From the NCBI GenBank assembly GCA_051294905.1, contig CM119371.1, positions 2,544,001 to 2,608,000 on the forward strand: a stretch of DNA of 64,000 bases, read 5' to 3'. Under the pieces are notes generated by a model that was not told the origin of the DNA, made no database searches, and saw nothing but the letters and a program-made list of their open reading frames with translations. Shown one piece after another: positions 17,097-54,552 of this stretch; position 1 is the first letter of the stretch, and each line of letters opens with the position of its first letter. The translations under genes were made by a program, and so were the position numbers. This DNA comes from Botryllus schlosseri (lineage: Eukaryota).

Positions 17097-17167
17097 CCGA
17101 CAACACGCCACTATTCGGATCTGAAATCATGGATTTGCCAAAATAATGTAATTTATAATTTACTCAC

Positions 17168-22114: not shown

Positions 22115-22641
22115 CAGGGTTGTAACCAAGTCACAAGGCTCCGAGTCACAAGTCAATCTCACTTTTATAGTTTTGACTCAATTCAACACCGATTCAAGTC
22201 CGAGTCCAAGTCAGCGAGCAGAGTGCCGAGTCCGAGTCATGGAATTATGACTCGAGTCCTAGTCCAAGTCATTGTGTTGACTGCTCAGTTTCCAGTTGAA
22301 GTCTTGGTAAACCCACTTTTTATAGCTCTGTTTGGTGATATCGAATGGTTCGCATTTATAATATGCCAATTTTCGTCACTTTCAGCAGTTTATGGTCGCA
22401 TTTTCAAGTACCAGCACCAACAGAAGAAATCGCAATAGTGTGTTGGCTTCAGAATTACAATGAAATATCGGTCTTGGCCGTCTGAGTCTCGAGTCAATGA
22501 CTTGGTTCGAGATGAATGACTCGAGTCGAGTCGAGTCATTTCCGTATTTTGAATAAATGACTCGAGTCAAGTCGAGTCATCAGAAAATCGTGAGTCGAGT
22601 CGGACTCGAGTCGAGTCATGACTCGAGTCATTACAACTCTG
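22115..22641. mobile_element. hAT MITE (GACTCGAGTC family)
   Basis: TIR cagggttgtaa / ttacaactctg; perfect TSD ctgatcac. Confidence 0.9.
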
Positions 22642-22859
22642 CTGATCACCGCATGAAATTTATAGCTTTTCGACAGAAACGCTGCTAAACAAATTTGGTC
22701 AATTCCAACCAATGGAAGCTGAGTTATTGCAGTCGAAAAATTAGGATATAAAAATATTAATAACCTGCCCATCGTGAATACGACACCAATTATTCATATC
22801 CAAATTTCCGGCTGCAATAACTCCGCTTCCACTGGTTGGAATTGAGCTAAATGTAGGAT

Positions 22860-23031
22860 TGATGTTGAAACTTCTCAAAGCTTCAAAAGCGTGTTCGACT
22901 TTTCATGCTTGAAATTGATGAATGCGTATCAGAGCTATCTTCTAGCTTCTAATATTTACGCAGGGATTTATCAGATCTCGTATCACTCGAGATTCAGTGA
23001 TAACTACTTTGTATTGGAACAGGAGAAGTTG
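22860..23031 (-). pseudogene. RBM28: RBM28-like exon C copy, truncated
   Basis: Shares atgaatgcgtatcagagc and caggagaag..ctgaaa with 1943-2151. Confidence 0.55.
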
Positions 23032-23859
23032 CTGAAATAGGATGGCGTCATTTTATCAAATAACTCATAGAGTAAACATGTCAGCCGATTCCAAAGAAGA
23101 GCAACACATTCGACTCCGCTATTTTGGACAGTGTTGTTCTGCTCCCTTTTGGCCAAATTAAGTCGAGCCACTGCTTTGTTCAAGTTAACCGTTAAATTTA
23201 ATTGCTCCTTCATGGCTGTGCATTACTGTATTAGGACTGTTCAAGAATAAGCTTTTTTCTGGATTCCAGCCATTCGGTGAATAAATAGTCAGGGTACGCT
23301 AAAAAACGCTGCACACCAAATTTGGTTCAATTCTGACAAGTATGAGGGTCCGCAGATCCAATTAAAATTTTCAATTTGCTAGGGAAGATATAAAAAAAAA
23401 ACAATCAAGGATAATAATCAGAGAATTCTCAACGAAAAACTCGAATAACTCCTCTTCTACTAGTTGGAATTGACTGAAATTTGTTATGCATCGTTTTTGA
23501 AGACAGCTCAACAATATCATGGGGTTGACGGTAACAATTTGAATTTTTTTTTCAATTTGATCTAATAAATTAAATATTTGAATCTAATTTTGAAAAATTG
23601 TGTAGCTTTAACTGTGATTCTGATCTAATTTGAAGAAAACAGTCTAATTATAATTCTAAATGTAGTGCAATTTGTACAAAAAAACGGTAGCTTTTAGCTA
23701 TCATTCTAATTCCAATCCAATTTGAATTTGAAAATGATCTACCGGTAGTTGTCCCAATCTGGCTGAGAAAACCCAGTTATCGTGTGAACCCCGGTTAGAA
23801 ACCCCTGCTGCAAGTTTGCTTAATGAGAAAGTATGCTAACAGTTGTGGTTATGACATAC

Positions 23860-24004
23860 CTTCAGCTTTTGACACTTCTAGTAAGATTGTCAGCACATAA
23901 TCGAGTTGTACGTCTGCATTTTTCAGTTTGGCCCGATTTGCATTTTCAATCTTCACACGTTTCTTCCATTCTGTTGCGTTGCGACCTTCAAGGGGCTTGC
24001 GTTT
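23860..24004 (-). pseudogene. RBM28: RBM28-like exon B copy
   Basis: Homologous to 3721-3878 including intron flanks; AG/GT ends. Confidence 0.6.
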
Positions 24005-24504
24005 CTACACAGAAAAATCACATGTGGTCATGCACTCTGCATCGCACTTTTCTACAAGTGTTAATCGGAGGTGGCTACCTAGCTTCACGCTGGGTTGCTA
24101 TGACTCGATTTACCGGTGACTCAACTTGCCTCGAGCAATTTCTTCAATAGACTTGACTTTAGGATTACCATATTCTGGAATCGGGAAAGGGGGACACTTT
24201 TTCAAAATATTTAAACTTGGAGAAGTCAAAATTATGTCAAAATTGTAGCGTTAGGCCAAAAATTGTCTAAATTGTTTACAAAGTAATAACTTTTTTGCAA
24301 CCTGCGTTTCGTTCATTTTGTATATTTTGTAGTGTCTGTGAACTTGTCATTTGACATTTCACCGCTTGTAGCCTACTTTATAGGCCTGCAGTTGTAGACG
24401 GCCCATGGTCTGCTTATTGTGAATCGTAAACATTCAAATGGAACAAATAGGTCAACATGGTGCTCAACGTACCGCAATATCCCAACTGAAGCTACACTGT
24501 GTGG

Positions 24505-25440
24505 CAGTGTTGGGATGACTCGAGTCATGACTGGACTCGAGTCAGACTCGAGTCAACTTTTTCGTATGACTTGACTTGACTCGAGTCACTTTGGAAAAAT
24601 GACTTGACTTGACTTGACTCAGAGCTTCAAAAATGTGCATTGACTCGTGACTCGGAGCAAAATTTACGAGTCAATTTCAAGTCATTAAGTAAGCGGTGTC
24701 GAATAAATCACTGTATCTTGTGGATGTTCGGATTGTTCGAGATACCCTGGTGTCACTTGTGAGAACAACCAGTCATTCACTAATTGTACGTTACAAGGTT
24801 CCTCCATTGTTCGATCACAAATAAATTGACCGCAACGTAGAAAATTAATCTAAATATCAATGTGTCTCTGTTTCTTAGACGGCTCAATGCTTACGTTGCC
24901 CAGTGCTCACATTTACCAATCCTCTTGTGTGATATAAATCGAACGAATATATTGGGTGCGTTTATATTCTCATGGAAGTGTAGATAAGTAGTGTAGGCTG
25001 TTGTACCATATCAGTTTGTTTCAACTTCTCGAAGCTTCGTATTAGGTCCTATATTTTGGCTGATAAGAACTGACTGTAGTATGGAGCTGTACAGTTACTC
25101 ACGTACATTATTAGCAGTTCTACGTGTGCGTGAGCGATATACCGTCTTTTTGCATGCATATTTAACGAGATATTCGTTATTTGATTCACACAGCTAGCAA
25201 AATGTAATGACTTTGAATCATCACTCATACTTCGAAAATTCAATTTGACTTGAATTGTGACTTGACTCGTGACTTGACTTGACTTGACTCGACTTGACTC
25301 GAGTCACCTCCAAAAAACGAGTGACTTGACTTGACTCGAGTCACCTTTGAAAATCGATTGACTTGACTTGACTCGAGTCAAAATCTGCAATGACTCGAGA
25401 TGACTCGTGACTCGAAGGTAGTGACTTGATCCCAACACTG
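24505..25440. mobile_element. hAT MITE (GACTCGAGTC/GACTT family, 936 bp)
   Basis: TIR cagtgttggga / tcccaacactg; perfect TSD ctgtgtgg; the same right end is seen at window positions 1-66. Confidence 0.9.
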
Positions 25441-32900: not shown

Positions 32901-33289
32901 TAGAACAATCAATCAGCTGATTTCATTCCATGTTTTGACTCAGAGCCATTCATGCACGTGAGACATTAGCTCCACCACGCGGAAGAGCGAAAGGCGTTAA
33001 ATCCATAACATTATGCAGTTCGATATTACATTTCCTTCATAGCCTATTTGGTTTTGTCATCTCTCCTAATTTTATTCTCCTGTACATGACGTTATCATCG
33101 GATAAGTCGATAAAGCGAACACTCGAATAGGGTAGTAATATAAAAATTTAAAAGAACTATACTGCTAGAAAAGTTAGGAGCCATCGATGCATGACATCCT
33201 TGGAAGCCGAGGAGACCGCTTGCCTAGTAACCACCAAGCCCCGAACTACTGCCATCTCCGGCTAAGCAAATTTGCGTTGTCACCATGTT

Positions 33290-33501
33290 ACAGTTGCATT
33301 GTGGGGGATAGGCTGGACGACTTAGTACAGGCGCTTATGGAAAAACGTCCAGTTTTAAAATATATTTGATTCGTATTGGGTTTGTAGTATTTTATACGAA
33401 TGGAGCTTTGAATGAATAATCATCGTAACATTCAGGATTTGTTTCAGCCCAATATCTCGTGTTTATATCTGTGTTATCTGTGTATTTCGACATGTCGAAG
33501 A
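33290..33501 (+). repeat. Left 212-bp inverted repeat of element 1; includes the transposase ATG
   Basis: Reverse complement of 42422-42633 with 5 mismatches counted by eye. Confidence 0.95.
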
Positions 33502-36500
33502 CATCTCGTTTTGGTGGTAGCGTTTGTTGCGCCTATGGGTGCAGTAAAAGGCAGAAAAAGATATCCACGGAGTCATATATGAGAAGTAATAGCGATGGTA
33601 GTAGCGATAAAGAGTCTTTGGTAAAGCGTCGGCATCCAAGAACATTTCACCGGTGAGTGAATGGCAGAATATGCAGGGCAGCAAGACTATCTTTGAAGAA
33701 TCAGTTTCTATTTTTAATATTTCCTGACCATCACAGTTAATCAATGTCCAGATAAGCCACAGCATTAATGAATAGGCCATGTTAAAGTGTCATTATACCA
33801 GAACATTTTGTCACAAGTATAATGATGTTGGTATGATCAGAGCAGACTATATCAGCAGTCTCAGCACCATGTCAGTTCATCAGTATACCTGTAATAGCAT
33901 GACCAGCCAGGTCACTGTTTGTATTCTGTATGGGCAGTTCAGCCAATAACTAGCTTAGTACTCAATCCTTGCTTAAAATTGTCGTGAAGGTTGGAGGTAG
34001 GACTAGAAGGAAAGGTATAATTGAGGGCCACACGGTTTTGTCCAGCATAGTTGAGTAATAACTCTATATTTCTGGTGCCAGATGCTCACACTAAAGTTCA
34101 AATTGCTAATTCCGTGGTCGAGTTCATTATAGCTTTGTGCGTGCGAGACGTTCGATTTGTCTCGTAAGATGTTTTTTTTAGGTTAACCTTTGGCTTTGGA
34201 TTTAAAAGGTTACCTAATAGTTTATCCTTCTGGGGTAGAAAGTAACAGATATATCTAAATCAAACAAGATAATTTCACATATGTTCCTGCTACTTTTATC
34301 ATCGTTCATAACAAAGAATGGTCAATTTGGTGTGCTTCGTATCATAGAATTACTTGTGAACTGATACAATGTTCTCTACAACGCAGCTTTCCTACCAATG
34401 ATTCCCTGAAAGAAAGATGGATAGAATGTATTAGAAGAAAAGACTGGGAGCCAGCAAGATCGTCGGTCATCTGTTCTGATCATTTTTCAGAAAGTGATAT
34501 TTACCGTGTTGGCGGGAGAATTCGTTTAAGGACGAATGCGGTGCCGACAAGATTTCGGAATTTTCCAAAATATATGAGGCCAAAGGTACGGTAGACACTA
34601 GACAGTGACTATATATTTATGAAGTTTGAGTTCCAATTACTTACCTTTATTTTAGCCCTAGTTAACATAAAATTCACAAATTTCAGGCTTCAAACAACCG
34701 ACGAGTGAGACCTTCTGCAGTTCCAGATAAGAAACGGCATTATGAAGCACAAACCGCTGAACCTGAAGTAGTTCTTCACGACCACAGCTACTGTGCGCAC
34801 ACGTCTCCTCGAAAAGTCGTTCAACAGCAACGCCGTAGGGTCGCAGAAATTAAAAAGAGGTTGGTTGCAGCCACAATGAGAACATACCGTCTGCAAAAAA
34901 AAGTGAAATCTCTGGATGAGGTCATTGCATCTCTTAAGAAGAACAATTTGATAAGCGATTCGTGTGTGGAGGTAATGTCACAAAAATTCAGTGGTCTACC
35001 AAGTGAGCTCTTGCAACGTATGAAGCTACAAGCTGGTGGAAGAGGAGTCAAATACTCTAAGGAACTGCAATCATTTGCAATGACGCTTCAGTATTATTCC
35101 ACTAAGGCATACAATTTTGTGCGTCAGAATTTTCAACTTGCTCTTCCCCATCCAAGTGTGATAAGACGCTGGTATGGAAAACTTCCCGCTGAGCCTGGCT
35201 TTACTAGTATTGCCTTTTCTGCCATCAGAGGAAAAGTAGAGGCATCAGCAAATCCTGTAATATGCTCCATAATGATGGATGAAATGTCGATCCGCAAACA
35301 GGTTTTTTGGGATGGAAAACGATACCGAGGATATGTAGACATGGGTACTGACTGTGAGGATGATGATTCTTTGCCTCTTGCTAAAGATGCATTAGTTTTT
35401 ATGGCTGTTTGTATCAATTCATCCTGGAAGATCCCGCTTGGATACTTTTTCATTAATGGTTTAACAGGATCGGAACGAGCAAATTTGGTCAGAATTTGCA
35501 TAAACAAGCTTAATGAAGTGGGTGCAACTGTTGCTTCATTGACATGTGACGGACCTTCATGTCACTTCGCAATGCTTTCTGCATTAGGGGCAAATATATC
35601 CTCCAGGAACATTGTGTCTAGTTTTACTAATCCGTATTTACCCGATCATCAAATCCAAGTAATTCTAGATCCTTGTCACATGCTCAAACTAATCAGAAAC
35701 TGCCTAGCAGAATGGGGTACTTTGCAAGATGGTAGTGGGCACCAAGGGCGTAGTCAGAAAAAATATTTGGGGGGGGCGAAAATTTCGATGACGTAAAAGA
35801 ACCCCCCCCCCCCCCTTGAAGATAAGGGGAAAATAGGTGAAAAAACGATGGTCTTGGGGCCTTATTGGATGATTACCACAACATCCGGGGCGATCGTTAT
35901 ACATATATTCCACTCACACAGATAAAGTGATGTTATAATAATACGATTGTGGAAAACTGTGGCGGCAACACTTTCGCGCGAAGCGCGCAGATTTTTCAAG
36001 GTTAATGAATGAAATTGGTTCATTATATTGTTACTTGCATATTGCAAATACGTTTCCATTATCAGATTTACTGGTAAGGCTGATAGAAGCGGTGTCATCA
36101 AATATTCAGGGACACTCAATTATGCAACTGGAACTGTATGTTCATGTTCATACAGAGCCGTAACAGCACTTCGTCAGCCCCCCCCCAAACGTTGGGCCCC
36201 CATATGACGATAAGCCGAACTTCTGGGGGGCTTCGCCCCCCTCAGGCTATCCGCTGTGTACCGCAACTTGTCATCTAGTTTTGGGGCCGTTCACTGAGGC
36301 AGCTTTTCTCGCCTAGTCGCGCCAAGCGCGAAAAGTTTCCATTATTCATGATTGAATCGGTCAATATGATCGGGAATTGCATATATATTGCTATCAATTT
36401 TTATCCTCTCTCTGCTCACGTAATCATACTTACAGGTAGAACAGAGTGAGGTGTCTTGGAAACTGTAGGGCCCGTTGGTATGACTCCATAACATGATGTT

Positions 36501-39472
36501 ATTTCGTGACCTCCTATCTGCTATATCAGAAAATATAGAATCGCCCAACCGTAGGCTACTAAACTAAAAGACGCGCACGATTTCAAATTGGTATTTCTTC
36601 ACCGCATATAATTTTTCCCTGCGCGATGGTATTTGTCTCGTGAGGTTCAGATTGTCAAGACAGGAACATTCGGCGCCAGTCATTTAGGCGCCTGTGGACA
36701 ATTAAACATGTATGTATTTTGTATATGTAACGACGTTTTCGGTCAGCATGAGGGCAGTACTTTTCGGCCAAGGTTTTCTCGCTGCTGATCGTTCTGGTAC
36801 ACTTCTTGGAGTCGCATGTTACATGGCCTAAAACTTTATATGTCTTGCTAAATCGTGGCGCTGTTATGGCCAACGCCGACATGCCCATTTCTATAAGTGT
36901 TGCGTATTTTTTCTTGGGGGAAGAGTACCCAAAAATCGAGATATTTGGCAAATTGAAATCGCGTAAAGCGCGAAAATTTTTGAAAAATTTGCATAAATTT
37001 TCAAAAAAATACTCTATAATTTATGTTAATTTACGAAAAAAAATTCCCCTTGGGCTCAAGCTTGCCCCCCAATTGGGGGATTTAGGGTGCGACAGTTGCG
37101 GTCCTGCACACGGAACGACCATTTATGAGTTGCTAGAGGGTATGAGCCGGGTGGGACAGTTTTCATTTATTGCTGTAGTTACTTCATGACTTGCGGAGAA
37201 AGCTGTCACAACTCAAAAGATCGCCCACACTCAAGGTCGTAGCCAGAAAAACGTTTTTTTATGGGGGAGGGGCAAATTTTCTATGAGTTTAGGGGAGCTC
37301 CCCGTGGGGACACCTCATGGGACCGTACATCTTTCCATGGACAATTTCATCACTACCCATTATACATGCGATTCTTAGACGCACACACACACCCTATGAA
37401 AGGTTCCATTTCCAAGTATAGCTTGTATTAGGAGATCGATTGACGGACGAGCCCAAATCGCTGACATTAAGTGATGGAAAATCAGTGTGAATTTCGAGCC
37501 TAGTCGCGCGGAGTGCAAAATTGTTTTGAATAAATGAATGAATTTGATCAATAATATCGGAGCATGTATATGAGCAAGTGGTGTTCATTTTGAATAATTA
37601 CTTACTTGAAGCAGGGTTATTTCGTAACCTGTGGTAAAGATTGACGCTACTTTAAAGATTGGAATCGCTGATACATATCAGACCAAATTAAAAAAATCCT
37701 TGGATCAAACTCGTGCGATTTCAAATTAGCACTTTTTAACAACGGGAGGTGGCGATATTTTTCTGTGCCAGTCGTATTTATGTCTTCGTCCGTCCCGGAA
37801 CGGAAATTGCCGGAACTAATAGTCCCCCCATACTGAACTGAAACCCCTAGACTCAATCAACCCAACGACCTCGGGCTATTCAAGTGTATCTACTGGTACT
37901 GTTGTATTCTCATAATTGAGAATGCAGCTAAACTGAATTATGATTATTTTCGGAATTTTTTTTCGGTAAACCGATAAAATCAAGACATCTATGGACTCTA
38001 AATCGCGCGAAGCGCGAAAAAAAAGTTTTAGGTTGCATTCATCTGCCCAAAAATGCTCTAATATTTGTTGATTTTACGAAAATTTTCCAAAAATTTGGGG
38101 GGGGCGATCGCCCCTTTCGCCCCTCCCTGGCTACGCCAATGGTGGGCACCAAATTTCTTGGAATTTCATCATTTTACTGCAAAAACTCCAGGCATCAGAA
38201 GGCCTGAGACTTGGCAATAAGCTGAAGAAGTGTCATGTGGAATGGCAGCAGCAAAAGATGAAAGTGAATTTGGCTGCTCAAACAATCAGCAGCAGTGTTG
38301 CTGATGCAATCGAATATTGTGATAAAAACCTCAAAATGAGATGCTTTCGGGGTAGTGCTGCTACCGTCAAGTTTTTGCGCAGTTTTGATCGCCTTTTCGA
38401 CATACTCAATTCGAGAAACCCGTTTGCAAAAGGGTATAAATCTCCTTTAAAGGAATCAAACCAGCACTTGTGGCGTCCATTCATGTATGAAATGATGGAT
38501 TATATTGCCAAATTACAGGACCCCTCGGGAAAGCCTATTGTTGAATCTCGCAGGAAAACAGGATTCCTTGGATTTCTGGCTTGCATAAAGAGCACGCTGA
38601 GCCTTTTTGATCGCCTAGTGGCTACAAAAATGGTGAGGTACTTGCTGATGTACAAGTTCAGTCAAGATCATCTTGAGCTATTTTTTTGTGCTGTCCGTAA
38701 AGCAGGAGGCTTCAACAATAATCCTACTTGTCTGCAATTTACTGCTGCGTATAAAAGGTTATTGATGAAGTTGGGAATCCGTGCATCATCAGGAAATTGC
38801 GAAGAAAGAGACGCAACCGCCATGTTGGACCTCTTGGATGATTTCAGGATTCAAGAAAGTGGACTCTCTCTTTCTTCTGCGACCTTGATCAGAAAATACG
38901 ACTTGGAAGCGAAACGACCTATGCAAGATGAGCATGACTACTCCGATGTTCCTAAAATAACAACTTTGTCTGAGTACAAAAGTCAAGCCATATCATATAT
39001 TGCTGGCTATGTTGCCAAGTCAGTGACTGAGCGATGTCTTTGCCCAACGTGTAAAGGGTCGCTCATGGTGGCTTCGGCAACCAGTGGCAGTTTCCTGCAA
39101 TTCAAGAACAGGGGTGGCCTAACTAAACCATCTACTGGTGTTATTGCAATATGTGAGGAGGCTGAAAAATGCTTCCAGCGAATGATTCATGTTACTTCTG
39201 GAAAGTTACCTCATTGCAAGGGCTTGATCAACGCCTTTGCCACTGCTATTCTGTCGAACATGTCTGGTAAATCACCAGCTTTCCCAGAACTTGAAGACCA
39301 TATTTATGACACCTCAGTTGGTGACGATCATATAATCACTCTGACAAAAGACATCGCCAAGACCTATTGCAAGATTAAATTCAAACATCTAGGAGTAGAA
39401 TACAATCAAAGGACATCAGACAAGAACGTCCGCAGAGTGTTAACAAAGCTGATTCTCTTCAAAAATCAGTAA
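33492..39472 (+). pseudogene. THAP-domain P-element transposase, ~912 aa reconstructed: exons 33492-33652, 34387-34585, 34687-35742 plus 38150-39472; interrupted by a hAT insertion
   Basis: THAP CCAYGC..FHRFP..W..W..ICSDHF..AVPT across GT-AG introns; MDEMSIRK, TCDG, DPCHMLKLIRN, KMKVNLAAQ, FDILNS, SQDHLELFF, YIAGYV; frame continuous once the insertion and one TSD copy are removed. Confidence 0.92.
35743..38141. mobile_element. Non-autonomous hAT-type element (2.4 kb) inserted in the P transposase
   Basis: Perfect 8-bp TSD gtgggcac at 35735-35742 and 38142-38149; TIR caagggcgtagtcag vs reverse complement cattggcgtagccag. Confidence 0.92.
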
Positions 39473-39699
39473 CTGCCACAGTTGGTCAGTCAACTTTCAG
39501 GTTGCTTGTTTACAATTTGCTGATGATCTTCGCCAGCTCGAGGGCAACGACACGGTCAAAGTTCCCGCTTCATTAAAGATTCAGGAAATGTGTCGTTGTT
39601 TACCCAGACTGGCACCCCCGTGAAAGGGGGGGTCACATTGTCAGTGAACCGCTGTGCTAGAGGATCTTCTGAACCTGACGCTATGATATTCAAACCAGA

Positions 39700-40200
39700 G
39701 TCAACGGTCCAGTGGGATCGAATGACGTTCCCGGATATGAAAAGGTTTCAGCGTTGGCCGACTGCCTGCTAACTCACAGAGATTGTACTTACTGTTTGAG
39801 TGAAGCGGTGGCAGCTCATATCATAACATTATGGAACGACTTTCTCCCATACGACAAGCAATTGAGCAATCACATTCAGGACCGATCTATAGGAAAGGAA
39901 ATCCAGGCGGCCGATTCAAATCGGCCAAGTCGCCTGGCGTGGTTGCTACACAGTAGTGCATCGACACTTAGGGAGTAAGGACATGGCGCACACGCGAAGA
40001 AAAAGGAACGATCCTTTCATCCGCATACGGCTTTGTAAGTTATTGTGGTTCAGTAACCCTCAGCGGTTTTATTTGATATTTTTGTAATTAAAAGAGTCGC
40101 AATTTGGACATGCTACACAATCAATGGTCGGATCGACGTACCGCAACTTGGATGTGAGGATTCCTGAAGCCGGTGAGTTCGCTCCATGGCCATCGTATTT
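39700..40200 (+). pseudogene. Decayed cargo gene fragment inside element 1
   Basis: VPGYEKVSALADCLL...IITLWNDFLPYDK and, after a frameshift, GRFKSAKSPGVVAT; recalled similarity to the C-terminus of TE-associated DUF6729-containing proteins, unverified. Confidence 0.45.
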
Positions 40201-42421
40201 ATTGATTCTACTCAAGCAGAGGTAGTTTAAAAACTTGAAGAAGTATCGCAAGTGAGCAAAACCACTTTAAGTAGAAGTACTTCTTAACTGACCACCTCTG
40301 GTCATTGCTAGGGCTTATAGTTGTGTTTCCAGAGTCGTAATGTCATGATAATATAAATTATGTGGATAGCTCAAATCTTTATGTTTAAAAAAAATCCAAG
40401 AGTTGCTTCTATCTATAGAACATATTTAGGTGTTTTTTCGATCATGCGTATTTTATAGGCTTCCATTGAAATATATTCTCTACTAGCACAGATTGGGCAT
40501 TAATGTTATTTCATTAAGCTGGTTCTGTTACGGCGATTGACACCTTTGCGCCATATGTTCAATAATGAGGCTCAAGGTGATTCAATTGTTGAATTACCTT
40601 CACCCTTCCGTTGAAAAAGAAAATGACAATTCGTTACCGCTTTCCGATGTTGTCGTTAAGAAGGTGGATAACAATTTTGTTACATCTGTCATCCTTTTAT
40701 CATTAGGCTGCATTCAGTGTCCAATACCTTTAGCGGTTAACTGTCAATATATAATTTATATGATATGTGCTCTGGTACACAGATGTAACTATCGCTTTAT
40801 TCCATACTTGCTCGTGGCTGTTTTCTTTTCCATTCAAAGGTTCTGGAATCGACCATCGTTAAGCTGTAAAGCCAACCCTGCGTCGCCAGAGAGAATATTT
40901 ACATACCCAACTCTTACTTCAAACCCACGGAAGACACCGGCTAACCCACTGAATGAGGTGAGGCCACTTTCTTCGTATGCCGTAGAATTTTCATTATTGT
41001 AATTCTGTACTCACAGTTTTTGGTATCTTTACAGATAATAAGAAAACAAAGAAGGGAGCAAGTCTAGCCAACACATACTTCAAACCCGTAAAAGACACCG
41101 GCTAACACACTTTCTTTACTATTTTATACGCATTTTGGTATAAAAACGTTGTCGTGACATCAAGGTATGTCGATCAATGTGTCTTCAAGTGAACAATTTC
41201 TCATATGTTAGTTCATTTATCTTGAACAGTGCCCCAAAACGACGTCGTCGTCGTAGGACCCGTAGTGGGGTGGCCTTCAATGTGACTGTGCCTGTGCCGC
41301 GTAAGAAGAGAAGAATTCCATTAAATTGGAACTAAGATCAGAATCGGTACGTTTATTATACCTCGTTCGCAGATATTAAGCCCTAACTTATCCCACATTT
41401 GACTTTCAGATCACCGTTAATTACGCCGAAGGCGACGTAAAGTCGATAACAATTAATTTATTTCTGTTTTTATTTTTTATGTTGTTATTTTAATAGAAAA
41501 ATTCGTTTCTCATAACCGAAGCTGGTGTTTCTGAAAACGAGAGTTCAGCATTTTGGTACGAGACAGTACAGCGCGGTATTTCGTGTGACGAGGCAGTACA
41601 GTTCACATCTCCAGTTAGTTTTGAATCCAAACTAATTTCTGGTTTCATGAAAGTGCAAAACGAGCCAAGCTTCATGTACACACGTATATGGGTAGCTATA
41701 GGTGTAATTATGATAAAATACATGTACGCCGTTTAGATTGTATCTTGTGCCGATTTGATTCGATAAAATTAATATTTATTATGAACTCCCAAAGTGCACA
41801 GATTGCTGTTACAACCAACATAGCCCCAATTTCACTGTGAATTGGGCAATTCTAGCTACATCTGAATAAGGACCCATGCATTTCTTGTTTCTCTCATTCA
41901 ATGAACTCATTCAGTCACTTCTACAGAAATCACTACCCCATCGCCACACATAGCAGACATATCTTTACTTTCTCTTTTTTGGATTTATTTAAATACGCTG
42001 AACCAATAAATACGTAGAATAACCACAATGGCATTCAGTTGATTTCAGCAGTGCCTTTTGATATGTCCCATGATGCTGAATTTTCTCCATCAGCAATATT
42101 CACAGCTGGCAGTTATAGCATTCACATCAGCTCCATTGAAGTATGAAGATTTTGAATCCAGGATAGGTAATTCCGAGGCACGCTCCGATAATAACTTCAA
42201 GCTGACAATCGTAGATGCTTTTACTTCCTATAGATACATATATCTGAAAGATAACTGAACTGGCATTAAACATCTTTTGGCAGCTTGGTTATTTCTGTAC
42301 ACGTAAAATATGCTGGATACAACGAGTAAAGCAATCTACATCAGGAATATAACCACAAAAAAATACATACGATGACACATAGACAACCTTATTTTACCAC
42401 GAACAGTCGAAACCACTTATA

Positions 42422-42633
42422 TCTTCGACATGTCGAAATACACCGATAACACAGATATAAACACGAGATATTGGGCTGAAACAAATCCTGAATGTTACGA
42501 TGATTATTCATTCAAAGCTCCATTCGTATAAAATACTACAAACCCAATACGAATCAAATATATTTTAGAACTGGACGTTTTTCCATAAGCTCCTGCACTA
42601 AATCGTCCAGCCTATCCCCCACAATGCAACTGT
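42422..42633 (-). repeat. Right 212-bp inverted repeat of element 1
   Basis: Reverse complement of 33290-33501. Confidence 0.95.
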
Positions 42634-43067
42634 TTCTAGTGACAACGTAAATATCGCGAGTAGCGCACTCCAGTGTTTATATAGCTCAGTGGTAACCACT
42701 GTATATATCGTTTTGCCATGGAAAACTGAATGCGATAGAGAGAGAGAGAGAGAATTTTATTCGGTCCATGAACATTGATGATACAAAGATAGATAAATAC
42801 AAAGCAAAGTATATATAATTCAGAACCAGGCTGTAGCGAAGGGATCGGGAGATCATCAAGTCAGCTACAGCCTGAAAGGATGGTTGTAATATGAAACTTA
42901 TCACAGAATATAACACATTTGCTAGCAAAAAATATAACATATTCGCAATGTATCAAAAACAGATGAAAAAGTAAGTGGGATAACAGTAGGTAACCTAGAT
43001 AGACGAGATAACACAATGGCACTGGCTATAGGAACACAAACTAGGCAAAAATATGCTTATTGACAAT

Positions 43068-46000
43068 TTATAAAGAATGTTCATAATTTCCTACAAGATA
43101 TTCGTGCAACATTTTTTTAAAGATATGGAGCGGTTTATCTTTAATATGGGGCGGAATGGAGTTCCATATACGAGGACCTTGGAAACTGATAGTCTTCGGA
43201 TGTTCTCGGGGTAAGAATAGATTCATAGAAGAGCCTCGGGTATTGTGTGAATGGTGACTGGTGAGATGAGTGAAATAGTCTCGGAAGATTTCTGGTAGGC
43301 TCTCATTGTAGTAGCCATGCATGAGCTTAGCTATTTCATATAAGTGGATATCTACAACTTTTAAGATGTTCAAGCGACTATATAAAGGATTTACACTATC
43401 TCTGCGATGGGCGAGACAAGTCAATTTAATTGCTTTATTCTGCAGGCTTTTAATCCGATTCAAGTATTTGGCTTTAGCTGAACCCCATAATACGACCCCA
43501 TAAGTCAAGTGCGAGTGGAAGAGTGTGTGATATATTGTTAGTCGTGTGGAAAGTGGTAATAGGAAACGGACTTTTCTTAGGACTCCTATGGCTTTCGATA
43601 GTTTATTGCAAATTGAATTAATGTGATCACCCCAGGATAGCTTATTATCTATAATTATGCCAAGATAGGATAGATGCGTCTGGAAAGTAAGTCTTTCATT
43701 ATTGAGCTTTAGTACTATGTCTTTTGGAGTACCTTTACCAAAGAACATACAGTGCGTTTTTGAAGTATTTATTGTTAGTCTATTACTACACATCCAGTCA
43801 TATATTTTATTAGATTTGAATTACATTAATACTCAAGGTCGGCTGTATTACAAGATGAGAGCATGAGAGATGTATCATCTGCAAACAGTTGAATTGTGAA
43901 GTCCGATACATTGTCTATATCATTAATATATATTAAAAATAGGAAAGGACCCAGAACTGATCCTTGAGGTACACCCATTTCAATTCCGAGCTTATCCGTT
44001 AAGACTTCACCATTTTTAACAAATTGCCGTCTATTACGTAAATAAGACTGTAGTAGCTTATACATGTTACCCCTAACTCCGTAGTGAGATAATTTCTCCA
44101 AGAGTATTGATCTATCCACTGTATCAAATGCCTTTTTAAGATCTAGAAAGATGCAGATGGTGGATAGATTGCTGAGAAGGTTTTTAGAGATGTTATTTAT
44201 GCTATAACTGCATGCTGGGTTGAGTGACGCTCTCTGAAACCAAATTGTTTTCTGGATATTATGCTAAATTTCTCAACAAAGCCAGTTAGCCTTTTAAGTA
44301 TTAATTTTTGTATGATTTTAGAAAAAATAGGCAAAATAGAGATTGTCTATAATTGGTTAGATCTTTAGGATTGCCCTTCTTCAGAACAGGCGTGACTCTG
44401 GCTACTTTCAAAATATCTGGGAAGATCCCAAGCTCGAAGCATTTATTGATCAGTTTAGTGAGTATAGGTAATATTGTATATATGATCTCTTTCAGAATAA
44501 AGACTGGAATACCATCTGGGCCTGTGGCTGTATCATTCTTAAATGAGTGAACTATCGCGATGACTTCATTCTCAACGACTGGCTGGACAAAGACAGAGTT
44601 CTGTTGTGGTTTATCGAGATATTTCTTGTAGTTATTGGTAGGCACATGTTTGTCAGCAAGGTTTCTGCCAATATTTGCAAAGTATTGGTTAAAGGCCTTG
44701 CATATGTCAAGTTCAGACGTTACGGTTCTATTGTCTATGCTGATTTTAGTTGGGAATTTTTTTTTGTTCAGTTGATTTAAAAAGTTTATTGAAGAGCCCC
44801 CATGTTTTTGTTTAATCACCTTGGTTCTTATAAAATTGATCCTTGTAATAGTTGCTCTTCGACTTTTTCTTCAATTTGGTTAATATATTTGTGTATTTTT
44901 TATACAATTCCACTTTGCTGTCCACACCGGAAAGAAAATGACTCTTGTAGAGTTTGCGTCGAGTCGCTATTGAGATTCGGATTGCAGAGGTCAGCCATGG
45001 TTTATTTGCGTATCTCATCTCCCTGCGAGTTTTTTTGCGGAGAGGTGCATGTTTTTCCATTAGGGAGTTGATGGTACTAATTAGAGATGAAAAGTTGTTG
45101 TTTATATCATCATTTTGAGTTCTACTTTCGACTTCAAGGTCATTTATTGCATCAAAAAGTTCATTCGAGAAGTTGTCCTCCGAGAGATTTCTATAGTTAC
45201 GAGTGTAGGCTATTTTGTGTTTCACTCCTACTGAAGCATTCATGATTTTGCAGAAAGTTGGTAAGTGATCAGATATATCGCTTAATAATATTCCGGATTG
45301 GTGCTCGACCTGGTTGTTGGTGAGTATGAGGTCAATTAGTGTCTGTGAGTTGTGAGTTATTCTAGTTGGATCTTTAATTAATGAAAGACACGAGAAACAT
45401 GATATTAGGTTGGTCAGATCCACAGAATATTTGTTATCTGATTTAAAGAGGTCTATGTTGAAGTCTCCCAACAGGTAAAAAGTTTTTTTTTGTAGGGTCA
45501 ACTTCTCGAAGCAATTTTCCATTGCATCTATGAATTGAGCCATTGATTGGTGAGGGTGTCTGTAAATTGCACCTATTATGATGTTTTCTCTCTTTTTGTT
45601 TTTCACCAAAGTTAATTCAATCCACAGGTCTTCACAGCCTTGAAGATTCAGGCCAAACTCTGAAGTGATATGGAATTGGACATTGTTCCTGATATAGAAC
45701 CCCACTCCACGCACTATTGTGGGAGAATTTGCATTGATAAATGTATATCCATCAATATGGACGTCAAAAGGAAGGACAGTAGATAATCTCGTTTCACTTA
45801 TGACGATTATGTCAGGATGTCTAGAGAACTCAGAAATTAACGAAGTGACTAAGCCACTATTTTTAGGAAGTGATCTTACATTAGCATGTAGCATTGTAAT
45901 ATAAGGGCTATCATCAGTAGGAGCATTAAATTCTTCTATACTATAATAATTAGAAAATCCCTTAGGTAGGTCAGAGCTAGATAACTTTTTGACAGAAGAT

Positions 46001-46227
46001 AATTCCCTTGTTAGTTGCATATTGTCAAGTGATGAAAATGGTAATTCCGAGTTTAGGCATTGGCAGCAATAATAATACTCATCAGTAGTTCCGATATGAT
46101 TGAATTGCGGTGTTGTCAGTTTGGTGCACTTCAAATGAGTCCAGTAGTCACAGATATCACAGCAAATGCAAGGCTGATTTGACTTGCATGGTTTGTGGCA
46201 AGAGCCACATGGAAATAAGACGGGCAT
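43068..46227 (-). pseudogene. LINE ORF2: PHD finger, APE endonuclease, reverse transcriptase; several frameshifts
   Basis: CGSC..CDICDYWTHLKC..CCQC; HANVRSL, SETRL, IYRHP, GDFNID, SDHLP; GPDGIP, GVPQGSVLGP, LFADD, YLGIIID; split over four ORFs. Confidence 0.92.
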
Positions 46228-46266
46228 TTTCTATCTATTGATCAAGGCTGAATTAGTGGTTACAGT

Positions 46267-47037: not shown

Positions 47038-47854
47038 TTTCTAGCATCACAGTGCAGTAGTGCATATAATGATATAAGTTATCAATACGTCTTAATCAGT
47101 GTCTAAAAGTCCTGAAACTAGCTTAACACAACCAAGATTACCAAGAACGGTAACTGCGTGGCCTGTCAATCATTTACGGTCGGATGATAGTGACCATGAA
47201 GCAAAGTCGCGCTAGTCTCACAAAACGTTGGCAAAGTTGGAATTGAGAGATTTCTGCTGGGTGTTGCCGATCGGGTGTAGCATTTGACCTTATATCTTTA
47301 TATGTTTTGCAGATATGTATTATTGCTCATTTACAGCTATCGAATATTGGAAATGCCTGTATTGGTGCAGTCCCTGGTTGTAATACTAGTCGCTAGTGAG
47401 CAAAATACTAATTCAGCCAGTGCCGGTGCCGGTGATATCAAAGCTAGATAGTCATATTATTTGATGCAATCATGTGACTGATACTTTGTTACTGGCATCA
47501 GGCTATGTTTATTTTATGGATCATTCATTGCAGTGACGTGCGGTGAGGTTCGTGGTTGGGGAGGCACGGACCCCCCCCCACACACACACACACACACAAA
47601 CACGCACGCGATATATTCTGTTTTAATCGATTTATTACAGATTACTCAACGAAAAGTATGAAAAGAAACACAAGAAATATTATTCAAGAACTTAAAGGGG
47701 CACTGCGCTCTAAAAATGATGTGGTCTCAAATTGAAGGTAAAAACGAACAAAAATTTTTGGCCGCGGCGATTTCCTTCAGAAAGCCACCGTAATGGAGCT
47801 GCAATTTATTGAAATTTCTACAAGACCAGCTGCCGCGGCTGCTTAACCCGTTAC

Positions 47855-50800
47855 ATGGCACGATATCTTCACCGTCGCACTTGCTCGACGCGAATAGGCA
47901 CTCACGCAGAGGCTTTAGAGCACAAATACTTGAAACCGAAAAGTTCAAGCAAATCAAGTTCAAGTCATCGGTCATCAACAGGTACCGGTACTTTTACATC
48001 AAATCATTCAACTAAATCTCGCTATAGTGGAATGAACGTCGAAAATGTCGTAAATTATCATCAAAAACTGCAAGAAATATGCTCTGCACGAGCAAAACAG
48101 GATATTGAAGATATTCAGGCTTCATTGAACACTGAAATACAATCAATTAAAAATCAAACTGCGTTGGCCCGAGCCAATCTACAAGAACAAAAAAAGAAGT
48201 TAGCAGAAGATCTACGAAAGAAACTAGACGAAGAAAAGAGGAAGTTGGAGAAAGAAGAACAAGAACTACAAAGACGGCAAAATCAACAATGTGAAATGAT
48301 TAAACAAAGGATGCAGCAAAATGCTGACGAAACAGCTCGCCGTGTAAAACGAGAACATTTGCAAAATACTTGTGAACTAGAACTATAACTCACTAGACGA
48401 GGTGTATCAACGCAAAGTTCACCTCTACTGACAGCGGCAGAACTGCAGCCATCTGAGAACAGGAGCCTGGCTCCTCAAACAAGCATTGTTCCAGAACAAC
48501 TACAGCAAGCAAGTGCAACTATTCAACCTACGAACAATGTAATAACTTCAATTGCTGAAGCGTCTACAAGTGTTGCTCCAAATGTAACTCCACCGATATC
48601 TTCGAATACTTCATACGCAGGTGTGGCTATTCCTTTTAATATCATGTCTCACAGTTCTTGCCAAATGTCTAATGCTATGAATGAGAATGTTTGTGTGCGT
48701 GAAAGATCTAACAGTAACTGTGTGACTGCTCGTTTGAACGCATGCATTGCGCCCAAAAATCAATCGCATGTAATTGATGCCGAAAATAGTCGCCTTGTTG
48801 TAGCACCTCCCATGATTGATACACAAATAACTCCTAATTTGCCTAGTTCCTTGGCATCTGATATCGTACAACCCTTTGTGCCAGCTTATTCAAATCAAGC
48901 AGCTACAGCAAGCTGCACAGTTCAAAATACTGCAAACTCTGATCTCGATGTAAAGCCTAACCAACCGCCTAATTTGATTCATTGTGAGAATCCGTATGTC
49001 ATTCACCAGGTTAAACCCAGTGATCAAATTGTTCCATTAAAGTTGGAACCAAAATGTTTTAGTGGTGACCCAATTGAATTTGATACATTCAAGGAAATGA
49101 TAAATGCTACTTTGAATCGTCAACCATGGACGCAAAAGCAGAAGTTGATGCATCTTTTGCAATACACCCGAGGTATTGCCAATACTTTTGTTAAAGCTTG
49201 TGAAGATATGGAAAACTGCTTTGATGAAGCTCTTGCGGTTTTGAGAGACAATTTTGGTCAACCGTTCCAAATAAGTGACCGCTACATAAACACTGTTATA
49301 AATGGCTCGAAATTCGTAGAAGGTGACAACGATTCTCTCCTCTTATTTCATGCATCGTTAACCGCTTGCACCAATAAGTTAACCAAATTTGGAAGAATTC
49401 GTGATGTTTCACGCTCTATGGTTGAACAAATTGCCGAGAGACTTCCCCCTTCCTGGCAGCCTGGTTGGAGAACCTTGGTGGCGGAGGTCACTTTTGACCT
49501 GAAAACCGAACTGACTGTTGAACATGTAAATGACTATGTTCGCCAGAAAATTAGAGAAATCACTAGTAAATATAACAACCCTAATCATGAAATATCCAAG
49601 AAGCAAGTGACGGGTGTATTCAAAGCTGGCAAGCCCAAGGCATCATTCAGCACACAAGTTGTGACTCCAACATTGGAACTTTGTTTCATGTGCAACGAAA
49701 AGCATTTCTTGAATCAATGTGTCCAGTTCCGCAAAATGCAGTATCCTGATCGCGTTGAATTCGTCAAAACCAAAGGGCTCTGCTTCAAGTGTCTAAAGTC
49801 GGGACACTTCGGAAAAGCATGCAAACGCATTCAAGCTTGTATAAGGCCTGGTTGCAAAGGCAATCATACAACACTTCTTCAACCTCCTGAAGAAAAGATA
49901 AAAGAGGTTGCTAACAAAACCTTGGATTCAGCCAATGAACAAATTGAAGGCCAAGGCAAAATTTCTGATTCAAAAGAAGCTACCTCTTTCTTCAGTGCTT
50001 CCTGCGATGACAATGAATATGATGATGATGAATGTGTAACTTTGAATGTAGTTTTGGCAAGACTACGGATTGTTGGCACTGACGACTACATCGTCACTTT
50101 GGCATTAATTGATAATGCGAGCAATTGTTCATTCATATCTGAAGAACTCGTGAGACTACTCGGTCTTGCTGGGCCCGAGCGAAACGTAACTTTCCAAACA
50201 ATCGAACCATCTAAAAATACCAAGAAGTCAACCATTGTTCGTGGTTTAGAGATTTCTGATTACGAGGGATCAGAATACGTACCTCTGAAGTCACTGATAT
50301 CTACAAAGAAAATCGCTCTGGACAACGACCTGCGGCCAACACAAAGTGATGTACATCAATTTCGACAATTTGAAGACATTCCAATCCCAGATCTTTCTGG
50401 AGACATCGGTCTGCTGATTGGTAAAAACAACCCCAAAATTCATAAGCCTCTGGAAACTATATACGGACCTGAGGATTACTTCGCAGTGAAAAGTGCCATC
50501 GGATGGATGTTCACATGCCCAAAACAATCCGAACTTTTCAAACCTCACTCCTATTTCATTCAAACCAATCCAAACCCTTTGTGCAGGATGTGTCACGATG
50601 ATGTCAATTCCATAGCAAATGACAAAACTGAACTCTCTGCAAATGATAAACTTTTTATGGAAAAGGTGTCATCGACAATCCTACTTGACTCGAACGGGCA
50701 CTACCAAATGGAATTACCATTGAAACATCCGGATTTAACACTGCCCGACAACAAACATCAAGCAAAACAAAGAATCAATTATCTGCAGAAAAGATTCCAA

Positions 50801-53800
50801 AAGGATCCAAAGTTCTTCGATGAATACAAAGTTTTCATGTCTGACATGATCACAAATGGATATGCCGAGAAGGTTCACAATGATGGGCCAGTTGGTAAAA
50901 CCTGGTACCTGAGCCATCACGGTGTGTATCACCCTGAAAAGAAGACTATCCGCGTTGTTTTCGATGCATCTGCAAAATTCAATAACCTGGCGTTAAACGA
51001 CCTTCTGTTGCAAGGGCCAGACCTAACAAACAACCTTGTTGGTGTTTTATCGCGCTTTCGCAGAAATGAAGTTGCGATCCAAGGTGACATTCGATCAATG
51101 TTCCACCAGGTTAAGGTTGATGAATCTGATAGAGACCTGTTACGCTTCCTGTGGTGGAAGGATAATGATCCAAACCAACAACTCGAAACGTACCGAATGA
51201 CTGTATTTTTATTTGGGACTGTGAGCAGCCCTAGCTGTGCCAACTTTGCTCTACGAACTGTCGCTGAAGACAACAAAAATGCCTATGACATTGATGTCAT
51301 AAATGCAGTTCAAAGGAACTTCTATGTTGATGATTTTCTTGATTCCTGTGAGGATACTCCTGCTGCAATTCGTCGTGTGGAAGATGTCAGTTCTCTGCTA
51401 AGCAAAGGTGGGTTTGAACTGACAAAATGGGCAAGCAATTGCAGAGAAGTACTGGCAGCAATACCAGAATCAAACAGAGCCAAAAACCTGAAAAATATTG
51501 ACTTGTTGACTGATGAGCTACCGATGGAGAAGACATTGGGGCTTGCCTGGAATATAGAAGATGATTCGTGGTGCTTCCGCGTCAAAGAAAAACACAAACC
51601 TTGTACCAGAAGAGGAATTCTGAGTATCGTGAACTCAATTTTTGATCCGCTGGGAATGGCTCAAACTATAGTGCAACCAATGAAGGTATTGATGCAGCAC
51701 TTATGCAAAAATAACTACAATTGGGATGACCCGTTACCTGAAGAAGCCAGAAAGATTTGGTGCGACTGGTTATCTCAACTACCGATGCTTGAAAACTTTA
51801 CGATTCCAAGATGTTTCAAACCGTCAAAGTTTGGACAGGTGACAAGAATCGAACTTCACCACTTCTCAGATGCCTCTGAGTTGTGCTATGGTGCGGTATC
51901 TTATCTGAGATATGTGAATGATGCAGGTGATATTCACTGTTCTTTTGTTTGTGGGAAAACAAGACTCGCCCCCATTAAAGGTTCTACCATTCCGAGAATG
52001 GAGTTGTCCGCTGCAACAATATCTGCCAGTAATAACAAATTTCTGCTAAAAGAGCTGGACCTTCCTATTGACGATTCATACTTCTGGACTGACAGCACAA
52101 CTGTTTTGCGATATCTCACAAACAAAGACAAAGCTTTCAAAACCTTTGTTGCGAACAGAATCAATATGATAAAAGAGTCTTCAGAATTATCGGACTGGAG
52201 GTATGTACCTTCAAAACAAAACCCTGCTGATATTGCTTCTCGGGGCCAGACTGTTTCTGAATTCTTGACTTGCGACATGTGGAAATTTGGTCCAGAATTC
52301 TTGTGGAAAGATTCTTCGGAGTGGCCTCAACAACCAACATTTCTAGAGGAGTTGTCTTGTGATGACCCTGAAATCAAAAATCCAAACAAATTGTGTTTTC
52401 TTACAATTACCACTCCAAATTCTGTTCTTGATGAACTCATCTCCAAGATCTCAAGCTGGACTCGACTGAAAAGGGTGCTGGCATGGGTCTTGCGCTTCAA
52501 AAATAATTTTCTTGCCAAAGCGAGAAACAAACAACCAAATGCAAAGCTGACAAAAAAGGCATTGACTTTAACCGAAGTTAAAACTGCTGAAGAAATGCTT
52601 GTACGTCATGAGCAAACAAAGCACTTCTCTGAAGAAATAGAAAGACTGAAGACTGATGAACAAATCAAAAGATCTAGCCCGATCTACAAATTGCTACCAT
52701 TTCTGGATAATGGGACCCTCCGGGTTGGAGGCAGAAATCAAAATGCTCCCATTGGTTACGACTCAAAACATCCGATAATCATCCCTAAAAAGAGTCCGAT
52801 TGCAGAATTGGTCATTCGAGATGCTCATGTTTCATGTGGCCACAGTGGCCGGGAATATGTTATCGCACAAGTCAGAGAAAGATTTTGGTTTGTCACAATC
52901 AATTCCAAAGTACGATCCATTCTGAAAAATTGTGTCTCATGTAGGAAACGTCAACGGAAACCAGAATCTCAACAAATGTCTGATCTACCATCTGATAGAT
53001 TAACTCCGAATGATCCGCCGTTCCACGCAGTTGCGGTTGACTGTTTTGGTCCGTTTTTGGTAAAGCGTGGTAGATCTGAGTTAAAACGATATGGTGTTTT
53101 GTTCACTTGCCTAACCACTCGCGCTGTCCATATTGAAATTGCGAATAGTTTGGACACTGATTCTTTCATTATGGCACTGCGTCGCTGCATTGCACGCCGT
53201 GGACAAATCAGTTTGATACGGTCAGATAATGGCAGCAACTTCACATCTGGTGAGAAGGAGTTGAGACAAAACATTTTAACTTGGAATCAAACAAAAATAC
53301 AAGATTTTTTGGTGCAAAAACAAATAACTTGGTTGTTTCAGACCCCTTGTGCATCTAATCATGGTGGTGTATTTGAAAGACAAATTCGCACAGTGCGAAA
53401 GATTTTGGGTGCTCTGTGTGATGAACAAATGTTGTCTGATGAATCTCTATTAACATTGATGTGCGAATGTGAATCAATTATGAATAATCGCCCTATTTCA
53501 ACTGTGTCTAGTGATCCACATGATTTGACCCCAATAACCCCTAACAGTCTGTTGTTGTTGAAAGATAAACCCATGCTACCACCTGGTGTGTTCAATGTCA
53601 AAGATGTTTACTCTCGAAAAAGATGGAGACAAGTCCAGTACTTGGCTGATCTTTTTTGGACAAGGTGGAAGAAACAATACCTTCCACTACTTCAGATTCG
53701 CCAAAAATGGAATGAAAAGAAAAGAAATATCACTGTAGGTGATGTTGTGCTTGTGTTGGATCAAAACCTACCGCGTAACATGTGGTTGCTAGGTCGTGTG

Positions 53801-53920
53801 ATTGAAACCCTACCTGACAAGTCTGGGTTGGTGAGAAGCGTGAGGGTCTTTACCAAAACGAATATTTTGAAACGACCCATAAACAAATTGGTGCTTCTCT
53901 GTGAAGCTCGTGACTGTTGA
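47855..53920 (+). CDS. BEL/Pao gag-pol polyprotein, single frame of 2022 codons with one in-frame TAA at 48386
   Basis: Gag FSGDPIEF, Zn knuckles CFMC..H..C and CFKC..GH..C, protease ALIDNAS, RT YVDD, RNase H HHFSDASE, integrase H..GH..CVSC, AVDCFG, SDNG, FERQI; order PR-RT-RH-IN. Confidence 0.93.
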
Positions 53921-54052
53921 GAGCTGAAATTTGTTACAGTTTTTTGAGTATTGTAACCTTTCGTTTCTTTGTGTTCTCATTGTGAATTTGCAGTTGTGTA
54001 AAAATTGCCAAACTTGCATAAATTCAAATTTTCAATTTTTAAAGGGCCAGGA

Positions 54053-54510
54053 TGAAGTCGCGATTTCGGACTTCAAGAGCCATAAACATCACGGTTCAAT
54101 AAACCTTGTATGACCTTTGTGACGTAACTGTTATAGAGTTGATTGCCGTTCAGTTTCGCCCTCGTTGCCTGCTTTGTATCAGTTGCTAATATTTTGAGCT
54201 ATCAATCTTATTCAATCGTATTTACATCGCAATTTTTATAGATCCTAAATTAATTATTATGAATATTACGATTCGAAATTTGTAACTGTCCTCAAGGAAA
54301 CACCGTCAAGTAAGTATATATTGATTTATCCGGTACTAAACAATTAGTGTTCATTCTCTGTGTATTAATGCTTTCAGAAAACCGTTTTTCGTCTGTGTAA
54401 AAGAAAATCCAACGAAGCAGGCAGAAACGCGTCATCTTGGGGTGTTGGATAGGACAGTTATATATCCATTGTGTATACGTGGAAGATTCCACCCCTCTTT
54501 CGCGGTTACA
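54053..54510 (+). repeat. Putative 3' LTR (458 bp), with no second copy in the window
   Basis: Starts TG right after the purine tract and ends CA; imperfect terminal inverted repeat tgaagtcgcg / cgcggttaca; internal gtaagt...tttcag intron-like segment. Confidence 0.65.
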
Positions 54511-54552
54511 TTACATTGTCTCAAAGATTGGAACGGACGCTGTTTGTGGACA

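Follow-up and report, generated by a model that had tools for sequence, protein, structure and literature searches.

The P element of Drosophila melanogaster and the zebrafish element Pdre2 (THAP9) encode transposases with THAP, helix-turn-helix (HTH), split RNase H, GTP-binding and C-terminal domains and with characteristic GTP-binding and catalytic residues; they have duplications of 8 bp at the target site (TSDs), CA...TG ends and subterminal inverted repeats, and occur with internally deleted copies (PMC7776569, PMC10983969). We describe here a P-type transposon that shares these characters and lies at 33235-42691 (~9.5 kb) of a 64,000-nt stretch of the Botryllus schlosseri genome (GenBank assembly GCA_051294905.1, contig CM119371.1, positions 2,544,001 to 2,608,000 of the forward strand), hereafter called the window. 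Its ends are different: P and Pdre2 have perfect terminal inverted repeats (TIRs) of 31 and 13 bp and subterminal repeats of 11-12 bp, whereas the window element has no alignable TIR and its subterminal repeats are 235 bp long. We lean slightly towards the interpretation that it represents a young P-superfamily (THAP9-like) cut-and-paste family, in which two unlike tips travel together and each tip matches itself.

In Anopheles gambiae, the TIRs of AgaP3 and AgaP4 are imperfect, mismatching at 8 and 6 of 31 bp, and their 8-bp TSDs are perfect; AgaP2-P12MITE, a miniature inverted-repeat transposable element (MITE) with ends from two P subfamilies, has spread to 132 copies, 58 of them complete (PMC1562414). 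That MITE is 326 bp long and non-coding, whereas the window element is 9.5 kb long and coding; the Anopheles ends are still called TIRs, while the tips of the window element have no detectable likeness to each other, a comparison made with the text description of the Anopheles ends. Galileo of D. mojavensis and D. willistoni, also of the P superfamily, resembles the window element in having inverted repeats lengthened by copying of sequence, even coding sequence, from end to end (PMC3573991, PMC4168063). Its long repeats, however, reach the tips, which are their best conserved part, and its TSD is mostly 7 bp, whereas the arms of the window element stop 35 and 39 nt short of the ends and its TSD is 8 bp; both diagnostic characters of Galileo are thus lacking here. 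Galileo chimeras, which have TIRs of two subfamilies, show non-matching flanks (PMC3573991), while the window element has a perfect TSD. Our searches of the open literature, which did not extend to Repbase and subscription papers, turned up no account of a coding P element whose tips cannot be aligned, or of the end repeat of the clade explained below.

The two ends of the window element consist of the following parts.

33227 to 33234, no strand: left copy of the TSD GTAACCAC (repeat search, chance estimate and fit to the target motif)

33235 to 33269, plus strand: left tip of 35 nt, starting with CA and atypical in comparison with the clade motif (end comparison and motif alignment)

33270 to 33504, plus strand: left arm of the subterminal inverted repeat (self-comparison)

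42419 to 42652, minus strand: right arm, which repeats the left subterminal region and its ATG in inverted orientation (self-comparison)

42653 to 42691, minus strand: right tip of 39 nt, with CACTGA, an AT-rich spacer and ACTGGA from position 18 (clade motif)

42692 to 42699, no strand: right copy of the TSD GTAACCAC (repeat search)

The initial annotation proposed a perfect 8-bp TSD around CA...TG ends that fits the GT....AC pattern of P targets, and both proposals held on closer analysis. On the plus strand of the window GTAACCAC occurs only at the two places listed, and it is the only direct repeat of at least 7 nt common to both end regions. With the right end given, chance alone would produce a TSD followed by CA in the 100 nt beyond the left arm 8e-5 times; it was found 35 nt outside this arm, and the right counterpart is at 39 nt. 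The rejoined target, CTA-GTAACCAC-TGT, matches 7 of the 8 fixed places of ANAGT...ACTNT, including 3 of the 4 outside the TSD; this is the target motif quoted for P and 1360 (PMC4168063), and the element thus shows both the 8-bp TSD and the palindromic target bias of the P superfamily. Position 42691 is a standard end because the right tip matches the end motif of the clade, independently of the TSD. It might be supposed that the TSD is coincidental and that the true ends are elsewhere, for example where the arms stop, which would make these long TIRs of the Galileo type; nothing except the mismatched tips speaks for this supposition, and it is scarcely credible in view of the uniqueness of the shared repeat, the chance estimate, the right end fixed by the clade motif and the lack of any other standard-type left end within 5 kb upstream of the element. 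The 8-bp TSD of the element is true.

When the left end was compared with the reverse-complemented right end, the outer 35 and 39 nt were alike in 16 of 39 columns (shuffle p 0.77), the middle zone in 15 of 20, and the inner arm (33290-33504 and 42419-42633) in 209 of 215 (97%); the whole arms (33270-33504 and 42419-42652) are 95% identical over 235 nt. This agrees with the earlier statement that the left end is unlike the reverse complement of the right end and that inverted homology starts about 36-39 nt inside and becomes near perfect from about 55 nt. The terminal CA is the only match between the tips; the element has subterminal inverted arms of 235 bp and lacks terminal inverted repeats. 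It behaves like a P element, but for want of TIRs we leave it outside the canonical, TIR-bounded group. The left tip has an imperfect internal direct repeat (positions 3-14 versus 20-30), and the left arm contains the promoter region, the 5' leader and the first transposase codons. Even when up to 3 mismatches were allowed, the window had no second copy of the left tip, and in viral contigs neither the tip nor the arm pattern was found; in the 81 related loci introduced below it gave loose fuzzy matches only. An origin of the left tip as a copy of the flank or of the right end was considered and rejected, the likeness being at chance level (p 0.26-0.97), as was an apparent hairpin between the left tip and the left flank (p 0.26). 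We also noticed GCCATCT in the left tip and ACCATGTT at left positions 48-55.

The transposase gene is assigned as follows, its exon borders being inferred from splice signals, phase, relatives and an RNA gap over intron 1.

33492 to 33652, plus strand: exon 1, starting with ATG at 33492, with the N-terminal half of THAP, an acidic insert and a phase-2 GT donor

34387 to 34585, plus strand: exon 2, with the C-terminal half of THAP (PF05485, E 7.9e-12)

34687 to 35742, plus strand: first part of exon 3, stop-free, with HTH and the N-terminal half of RNase H (PF12017, PF21787)

38150 to 39472, plus strand: second part of exon 3, with the GTP-binding region, the C-terminal half of RNase H and the THAP9 C-terminal domain (PF21788, PF21789, PF22824)

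Both parts of exon 3 form one reading frame without stops, and PF22824 is in the same frame as the rest; we found no separate convergent gene for the C-terminal domain. The N-terminal THAP domain is recognized by PF05485 on exon 2 and by exon 1, which matches the THAP starts of relatives (49-65% identical to exon 1 of L004, L007, L035 and L040, with a shared intron position), and five Pfam profiles cover the HTH, the split RNase H with its GTP-binding insertion and the C-terminal domains. The C-terminal part matches the fly transposase structure PDB 6p5a (E 1.9e-5), and in this alignment E531 and eight GTP residues (K385, K400, V401, S409, F443, D444, N447 and D528) of the list of GTP-binding and catalytic residues in section 8 of PMC7776569 are identical; the N-terminal half had no PDB match, and the catalytic D230 and D303 were assigned through the acidic motifs DEM and CDG inside PF21787. 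The closest of 934 homologues is 62% identical. The transposase is a member of the P/THAP9 clade, and the domains together with the true TSD support the initial view of a P-type cut-and-paste element. No conserved reading frame was found in 39473-42691, and an Rfam search gave no match at the gathering score.

We collected 81 related loci, composed of the best 80 of 362 in metagenomes and one in prokaryote assemblies, while none of 179 candidates in viral contigs was a transposase relative. Among them, L005/L007/L035, L019, L027 and others share with the window element a transposase segment of 39-57% identity, the end motif of its right tip, the THAP exon 1 (L007 and L035) and a GT/GG...AC/CC target bias. 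The clade motif, CAY[T/G/C]GA, 10-14 nt and AY[T/G]GGA, was derived from the right tip in the window and two relatives. In the flanks of the 81 loci it occurred 13 times inward (5 left, 8 right) and 2 times outward, with 1.4 expected by chance; the motif was tuned on some of the counted ends, and since L005, L007 and L035 are one family, the count represents about 10 families, one of them circular. That the motif marks the actual end is seen in L007 and L035, which have different flanks and whose agreement begins one base before the motif, this being the only case in which near-identical contig boundaries gave an end, and in L027, in which the motif lies inside a 30-bp TIR with the TSD GTTGCCCC. 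A search of the loci for TSDs with CA/TG without regard to TIRs gave many chance pairs, and L027 was the sole credible element.

The standard motif is also present at the left ends of L007, L035, L019, L027, L057 and L061. In contrast to the window element, the relatives with both ends known (L005/L007/L035, L019 and L027) have the standard motif at both ends (26-36-bp TIRs; 26 bp in L019, whose flanks have no TSD) and no long arms, their subterminal repeats being short or absent. Because the right tip of the window element is of the clade-standard type and relatives carry the standard motif at both ends, the left tip is the derived one. Inspection upstream of 16 THAP start codons of relatives for atypical left ends gave no convincing case. 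A GCCATNTT-like motif occurs ~60-90 nt inside the ends of L007 (183-192), L019, L057, L061 and L078, with which the ACCATGTT and GCCATCT of the window element may be compared; it may be YY1-like or else a THAP site. At L081:1121-3791, a metagenome-assembled contig of bacterial assignment (Cocleimonas) contains a THAP9-like element in which part of a clade end is present; as the tree places it with fish proteins, it is probably eukaryotic DNA in the bin.

A possible explanation of the unlike tips comes from the fly transpososome. Cleavage at P ends is staggered by 17 nt, and the transferred strand folds back onto the 5' part of the non-transferred strand; this pairing is required for transposition, GTP contacts the terminal base, and a review from the Rio laboratory calls the origin of the duplex unclear (PMC7776569, including its section 8). 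This pairing lies within one end, the 3' overhang of each tip meeting its own inner strand, and we infer that each tip should therefore have an internal direct repeat. The sequence rule would then be a CA start and outer bases repeated ~16-18 nt inward, with no need to mirror the other end. The enzyme would need CA, a self-matching tip and internal sites, and the left tip, a derived end taken over from a different P family or from some cryptic site, would meet the rule with different letters. The unlike tips thus suggest that the enzyme may read each tip separately, without a mirror-image pair. The model is consistent with the finding that the zebrafish and fly transposases cross-excise elements with different termini (PMC10983969).

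The clade motif is itself such an internal repeat: the outer copy is ACTGA, and the inner one, ACTGGA, begins at position 17-20 in all but one of 15 ends of relatives, and in L027 the outer and inner copies have changed together (ATGGA and ATGGA). We scored this self-register by identity, G-T wobble and one bulge at eight ends found independently of the motif search, and six of the eight, among them the left tip, ranked within the best 5% of CA sites. The right tip scored 5.5 (15%), the right end of L019 was at 23%, and the left tip scored 7.0 (4%), the last under a second scoring scheme of our own and with a register from position 3, not 2; when halves of the two window tips were swapped, the scores were 2.5 and 3.5. 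Since the fold-back energies given below are unremarkable for both tips, the self-pairing register of the left tip is suggestive only. The stronger proposal, that this is an autonomous multi-copy P-type family without TIRs whose two unrelated tips have each been selected as self-contained fold-back signals, is one that we put forward tentatively.

The initial annotation proposed instead that the element relies on its subterminal repeats, and this part was not sustained. In such a mechanism the tips beyond CA would be indifferent and the transposase would be positioned by arm sites at a roughly fixed distance (35 versus 39 nt), which is compatible with asymmetry throughout the family; the 97% identity of the inner arms beside unalike tips, the binding of internal sites by THAP domains (PMC7776569) and the non-significant fold-back energies given below accord with it. 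On the other hand, the full clade motif is kept at the right tip across large protein distances, the left tip seems conserved where the adjoining 99 nt are not, and long arms are absent in relatives; since relatives do without arms, dependence on them is unproven. The arm, moreover, mirrors the promoter, 5' leader and ATG of the left side, and this misplaced ATG is the mark of a copied promoter. We therefore regard positioning by the arms as unlikely. Because the right arm carries the mirrored ATG, with a stop after four codons, the copying went from left to right, and the arms have the look of a duplicated left promoter with its start codon, as in Galileo. In the model of self-matching tips, the arms would have formed later, when repair copied the left subterminal region to the right end but stopped short of the tips; they may give both ends equal THAP sites, and would supply putative internal binding sites together with a second, antisense promoter.

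Whether the odd left end belongs to the family or to this copy alone is a separate question, for which we compared four of 24 listed sequencing runs with the window; at least 466 further joints and at least 3461 loose ends exist beyond those listed. The first point concerns age. The transposase gene is split by a nested insert, by which this copy at 33235-42691 is now disabled.

35743 to 38141, no strand: nested non-autonomous insert of 2,399 bp with short TIRs, between TSDs GTGGGCAC at 35735-35742 and 38142-38149

This TSD is also of the GT....AC form, and we presume the ends of the insert to be hAT-like. Contigs free of it have the joint 35734>38142 (depth 1357 in run X13, 61 in X5 and 4 in X1), and the insert is thus polymorphic, being lacking in other copies or alleles. 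Internally deleted copies were recognized by the joints 35716>41321 and 35477>41408. Pieces in X13 and X5 are ~99% identical to the window, and a further contig set is ~89% identical; the family is multi-copy and young. Since the element is young, as judged from these ~99%-identical pieces and the open frame, the mismatch of the tips cannot have arisen by drift alone over 33 bases. Two stretches stand out in depth: 36160-37197 within the nested insert, at tens to hundreds of times the transposase in DNA runs, is a very high-copy repeat, and 39966-40311, at 30-80 times the neighbouring bins, is another high-copy repeat inserted in the 3' part. Depth arithmetic was also used to estimate how many copies the left tip has, but the results for three runs (3973, 483 and a negative number) were discarded as unusable.

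Two runs that differ in sample and study, X13 (depth 255) and X5 (17), have the joint 33255>33355 with a side of 20, and its depth agrees with that of the ~89%-identical contig set (207-287 in X13, ~13 in X5). A diverged copy thus seems to have retained ~20 letters from the left tip, up to one base from the proposed end, while alignment is lost over the 99 nt that follow. In X5 the contig of this joint stops short of the flank at 33138-33145 (depths 10.7 and 8.7, against 16.8 for the joint). The ~89% set appears to have a longer arm, as judged from the joint 33552>42412 between opposite strands. We consider it reasonably probable that asymmetric ends are family-wide, and the element most likely moved with these two unlike ends. 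To this extent the claim that it transposed with asymmetric ends stands, while the same left/right pairing in other copies, which the initial annotation named as support, is thinly backed: one joint in two of the four runs speaks for it, and a second TSD is missing among the joints listed.

Several observations weigh against this reading and against self-matching tips. Fold-back duplex energies as low as those of the two tips occur at 13% and 18% of CA sites (shuffle p 0.30 and 0.20), and the scheme and register behind the left tip's score were of our own choosing. All three relatives with both ends known (L005/L007/L035, L019 and L027) are symmetric, and the first of these, assembled from three 99%-identical contigs and sharing the unusual THAP exon 1, is in the sister clade of the window element and is its closest relative with ends. 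Neither a tip of the left type nor long arms ending in unlike tips were seen in the 81 loci, most contigs being too short for both ends, and a donor of the left tip was not found in these loci, the window or the viral contigs. The joint 33255>33355 is represented by one contig per run, has a side below 30, starts one base inside the proposed tip and is known without its letters, and its short side could be the right one. Neither a second insertion site with a TSD nor an empty allele was among the joints listed, which are dominated by nested repeats, so that a missing empty site or missing clipped tips there carry no weight.

Two other histories have to be considered in the light of these observations. 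One is that the family is symmetric and this insertion alone used a foreign or cryptic left end, from a neighbouring P family or from host DNA beside a copy without its tip. The symmetry of the relatives would agree with it, as would a tree, made by a quick search only, that nests the window element among elements with a standard left end as well, and AgaP2-P12MITE is a published precedent (PMC1562414). However, the left tip is joined to the arm in two other samples at a contig depth that fits the diverged copy, and the X5 contig does not reach the flank of this insertion; we regard such a one-off hybrid as rather unlikely. In the initial annotation symmetric CACTGAG ends in other copies were to signify a chimera; the symmetric ends that we found belong to families of other hosts, not to copies of this element. 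The other history is that a symmetric element was inserted and that left bases 3-35 were then replaced locally, with CA and the TSD kept, by abortive cleavage with filler repair or through an assembly error. A standard right tip makes a standard left tip the ancestral state, and the left tip is nowhere else in the window, as this history would have it. Nevertheless, no nearby template exceeds chance likeness, repair after P cleavage should retain the outermost bases (inferred from the 17-nt overhang), and the same ~20 letters stand beside the arm in two other samples; in-place damage is accordingly quite improbable in our view, and movement with two unlike ends is the reading that we retain.

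P elements have been defined and found through their TIRs, and a TIR-less family will be missed or wrongly bounded by TIR-based annotation. If the pairing of unlike tips is family-wide, P transposase does not need end symmetry, and if the fold-back model is true, the ACTGA / ACTGGA repeat would make the DNA structure of the fly transpososome general to THAP9-like elements, the window element being a natural experiment that separates self-pairing from end symmetry. The aligned clade ends are a ready set of natural variants for the fold-back end code. Should the oddity be confined to this copy, it would be a modest example of transposition with hybrid ends, for which a precedent has been published.

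RNA was examined in a run chosen by species label, whose reads cannot be assigned to this particular copy. Sense RNA rises near 33291 and skips intron 1 (depth 0.1 in the intron bin). RNA of the opposite strand runs inward from the right arm and past it (depth 41 at 42042-42387 and 22 in the next bin to 42733); this inward antisense RNA (42042-42733), from the copied transposase promoter, raises the possibility of self-silencing. The strongest sense RNA of the element comes from its non-coding 3' part, in which no conserved protein was found.

41004 to 41695, plus strand: abundant sense RNA of the 3' part (depth 102 and 48), with a spliced GT-AG intron at 41347-41409

Here 61 reads with a loose end at 41346 resume from 41410, and an additional A follows 41313 in 216 of 261 reads. 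From a possible acceptor at 41230 a basic frame of 34 codons (PKRRRRRR...PRKKRR) opens in the phase left by exon 1. The RNA of 41004-41695 could encode a short repressor form, composed of THAP and a nuclear localization signal, from deleted copies.

Other elements were noticed in the window. Just right of the transposon, 43068-46230 on the minus strand has LINE-type open reading frames that include an APE endonuclease domain and are broken up among several frames. At 47531-57653 there is a 10.1 kb stretch with 14-bp matching ends (CAGTGACGTGCGGT) and the 8-bp TSD ATTCATTG, and further CA-ended elements with 8-bp duplications are at 17875-19383, 24505-25440, 10591-20332 and 22568-25296, of which the last two have common ends (CAAGTCGAGTCA) and a common flank (ACTCGAGT), this flank possibly belonging to the repeat unit.

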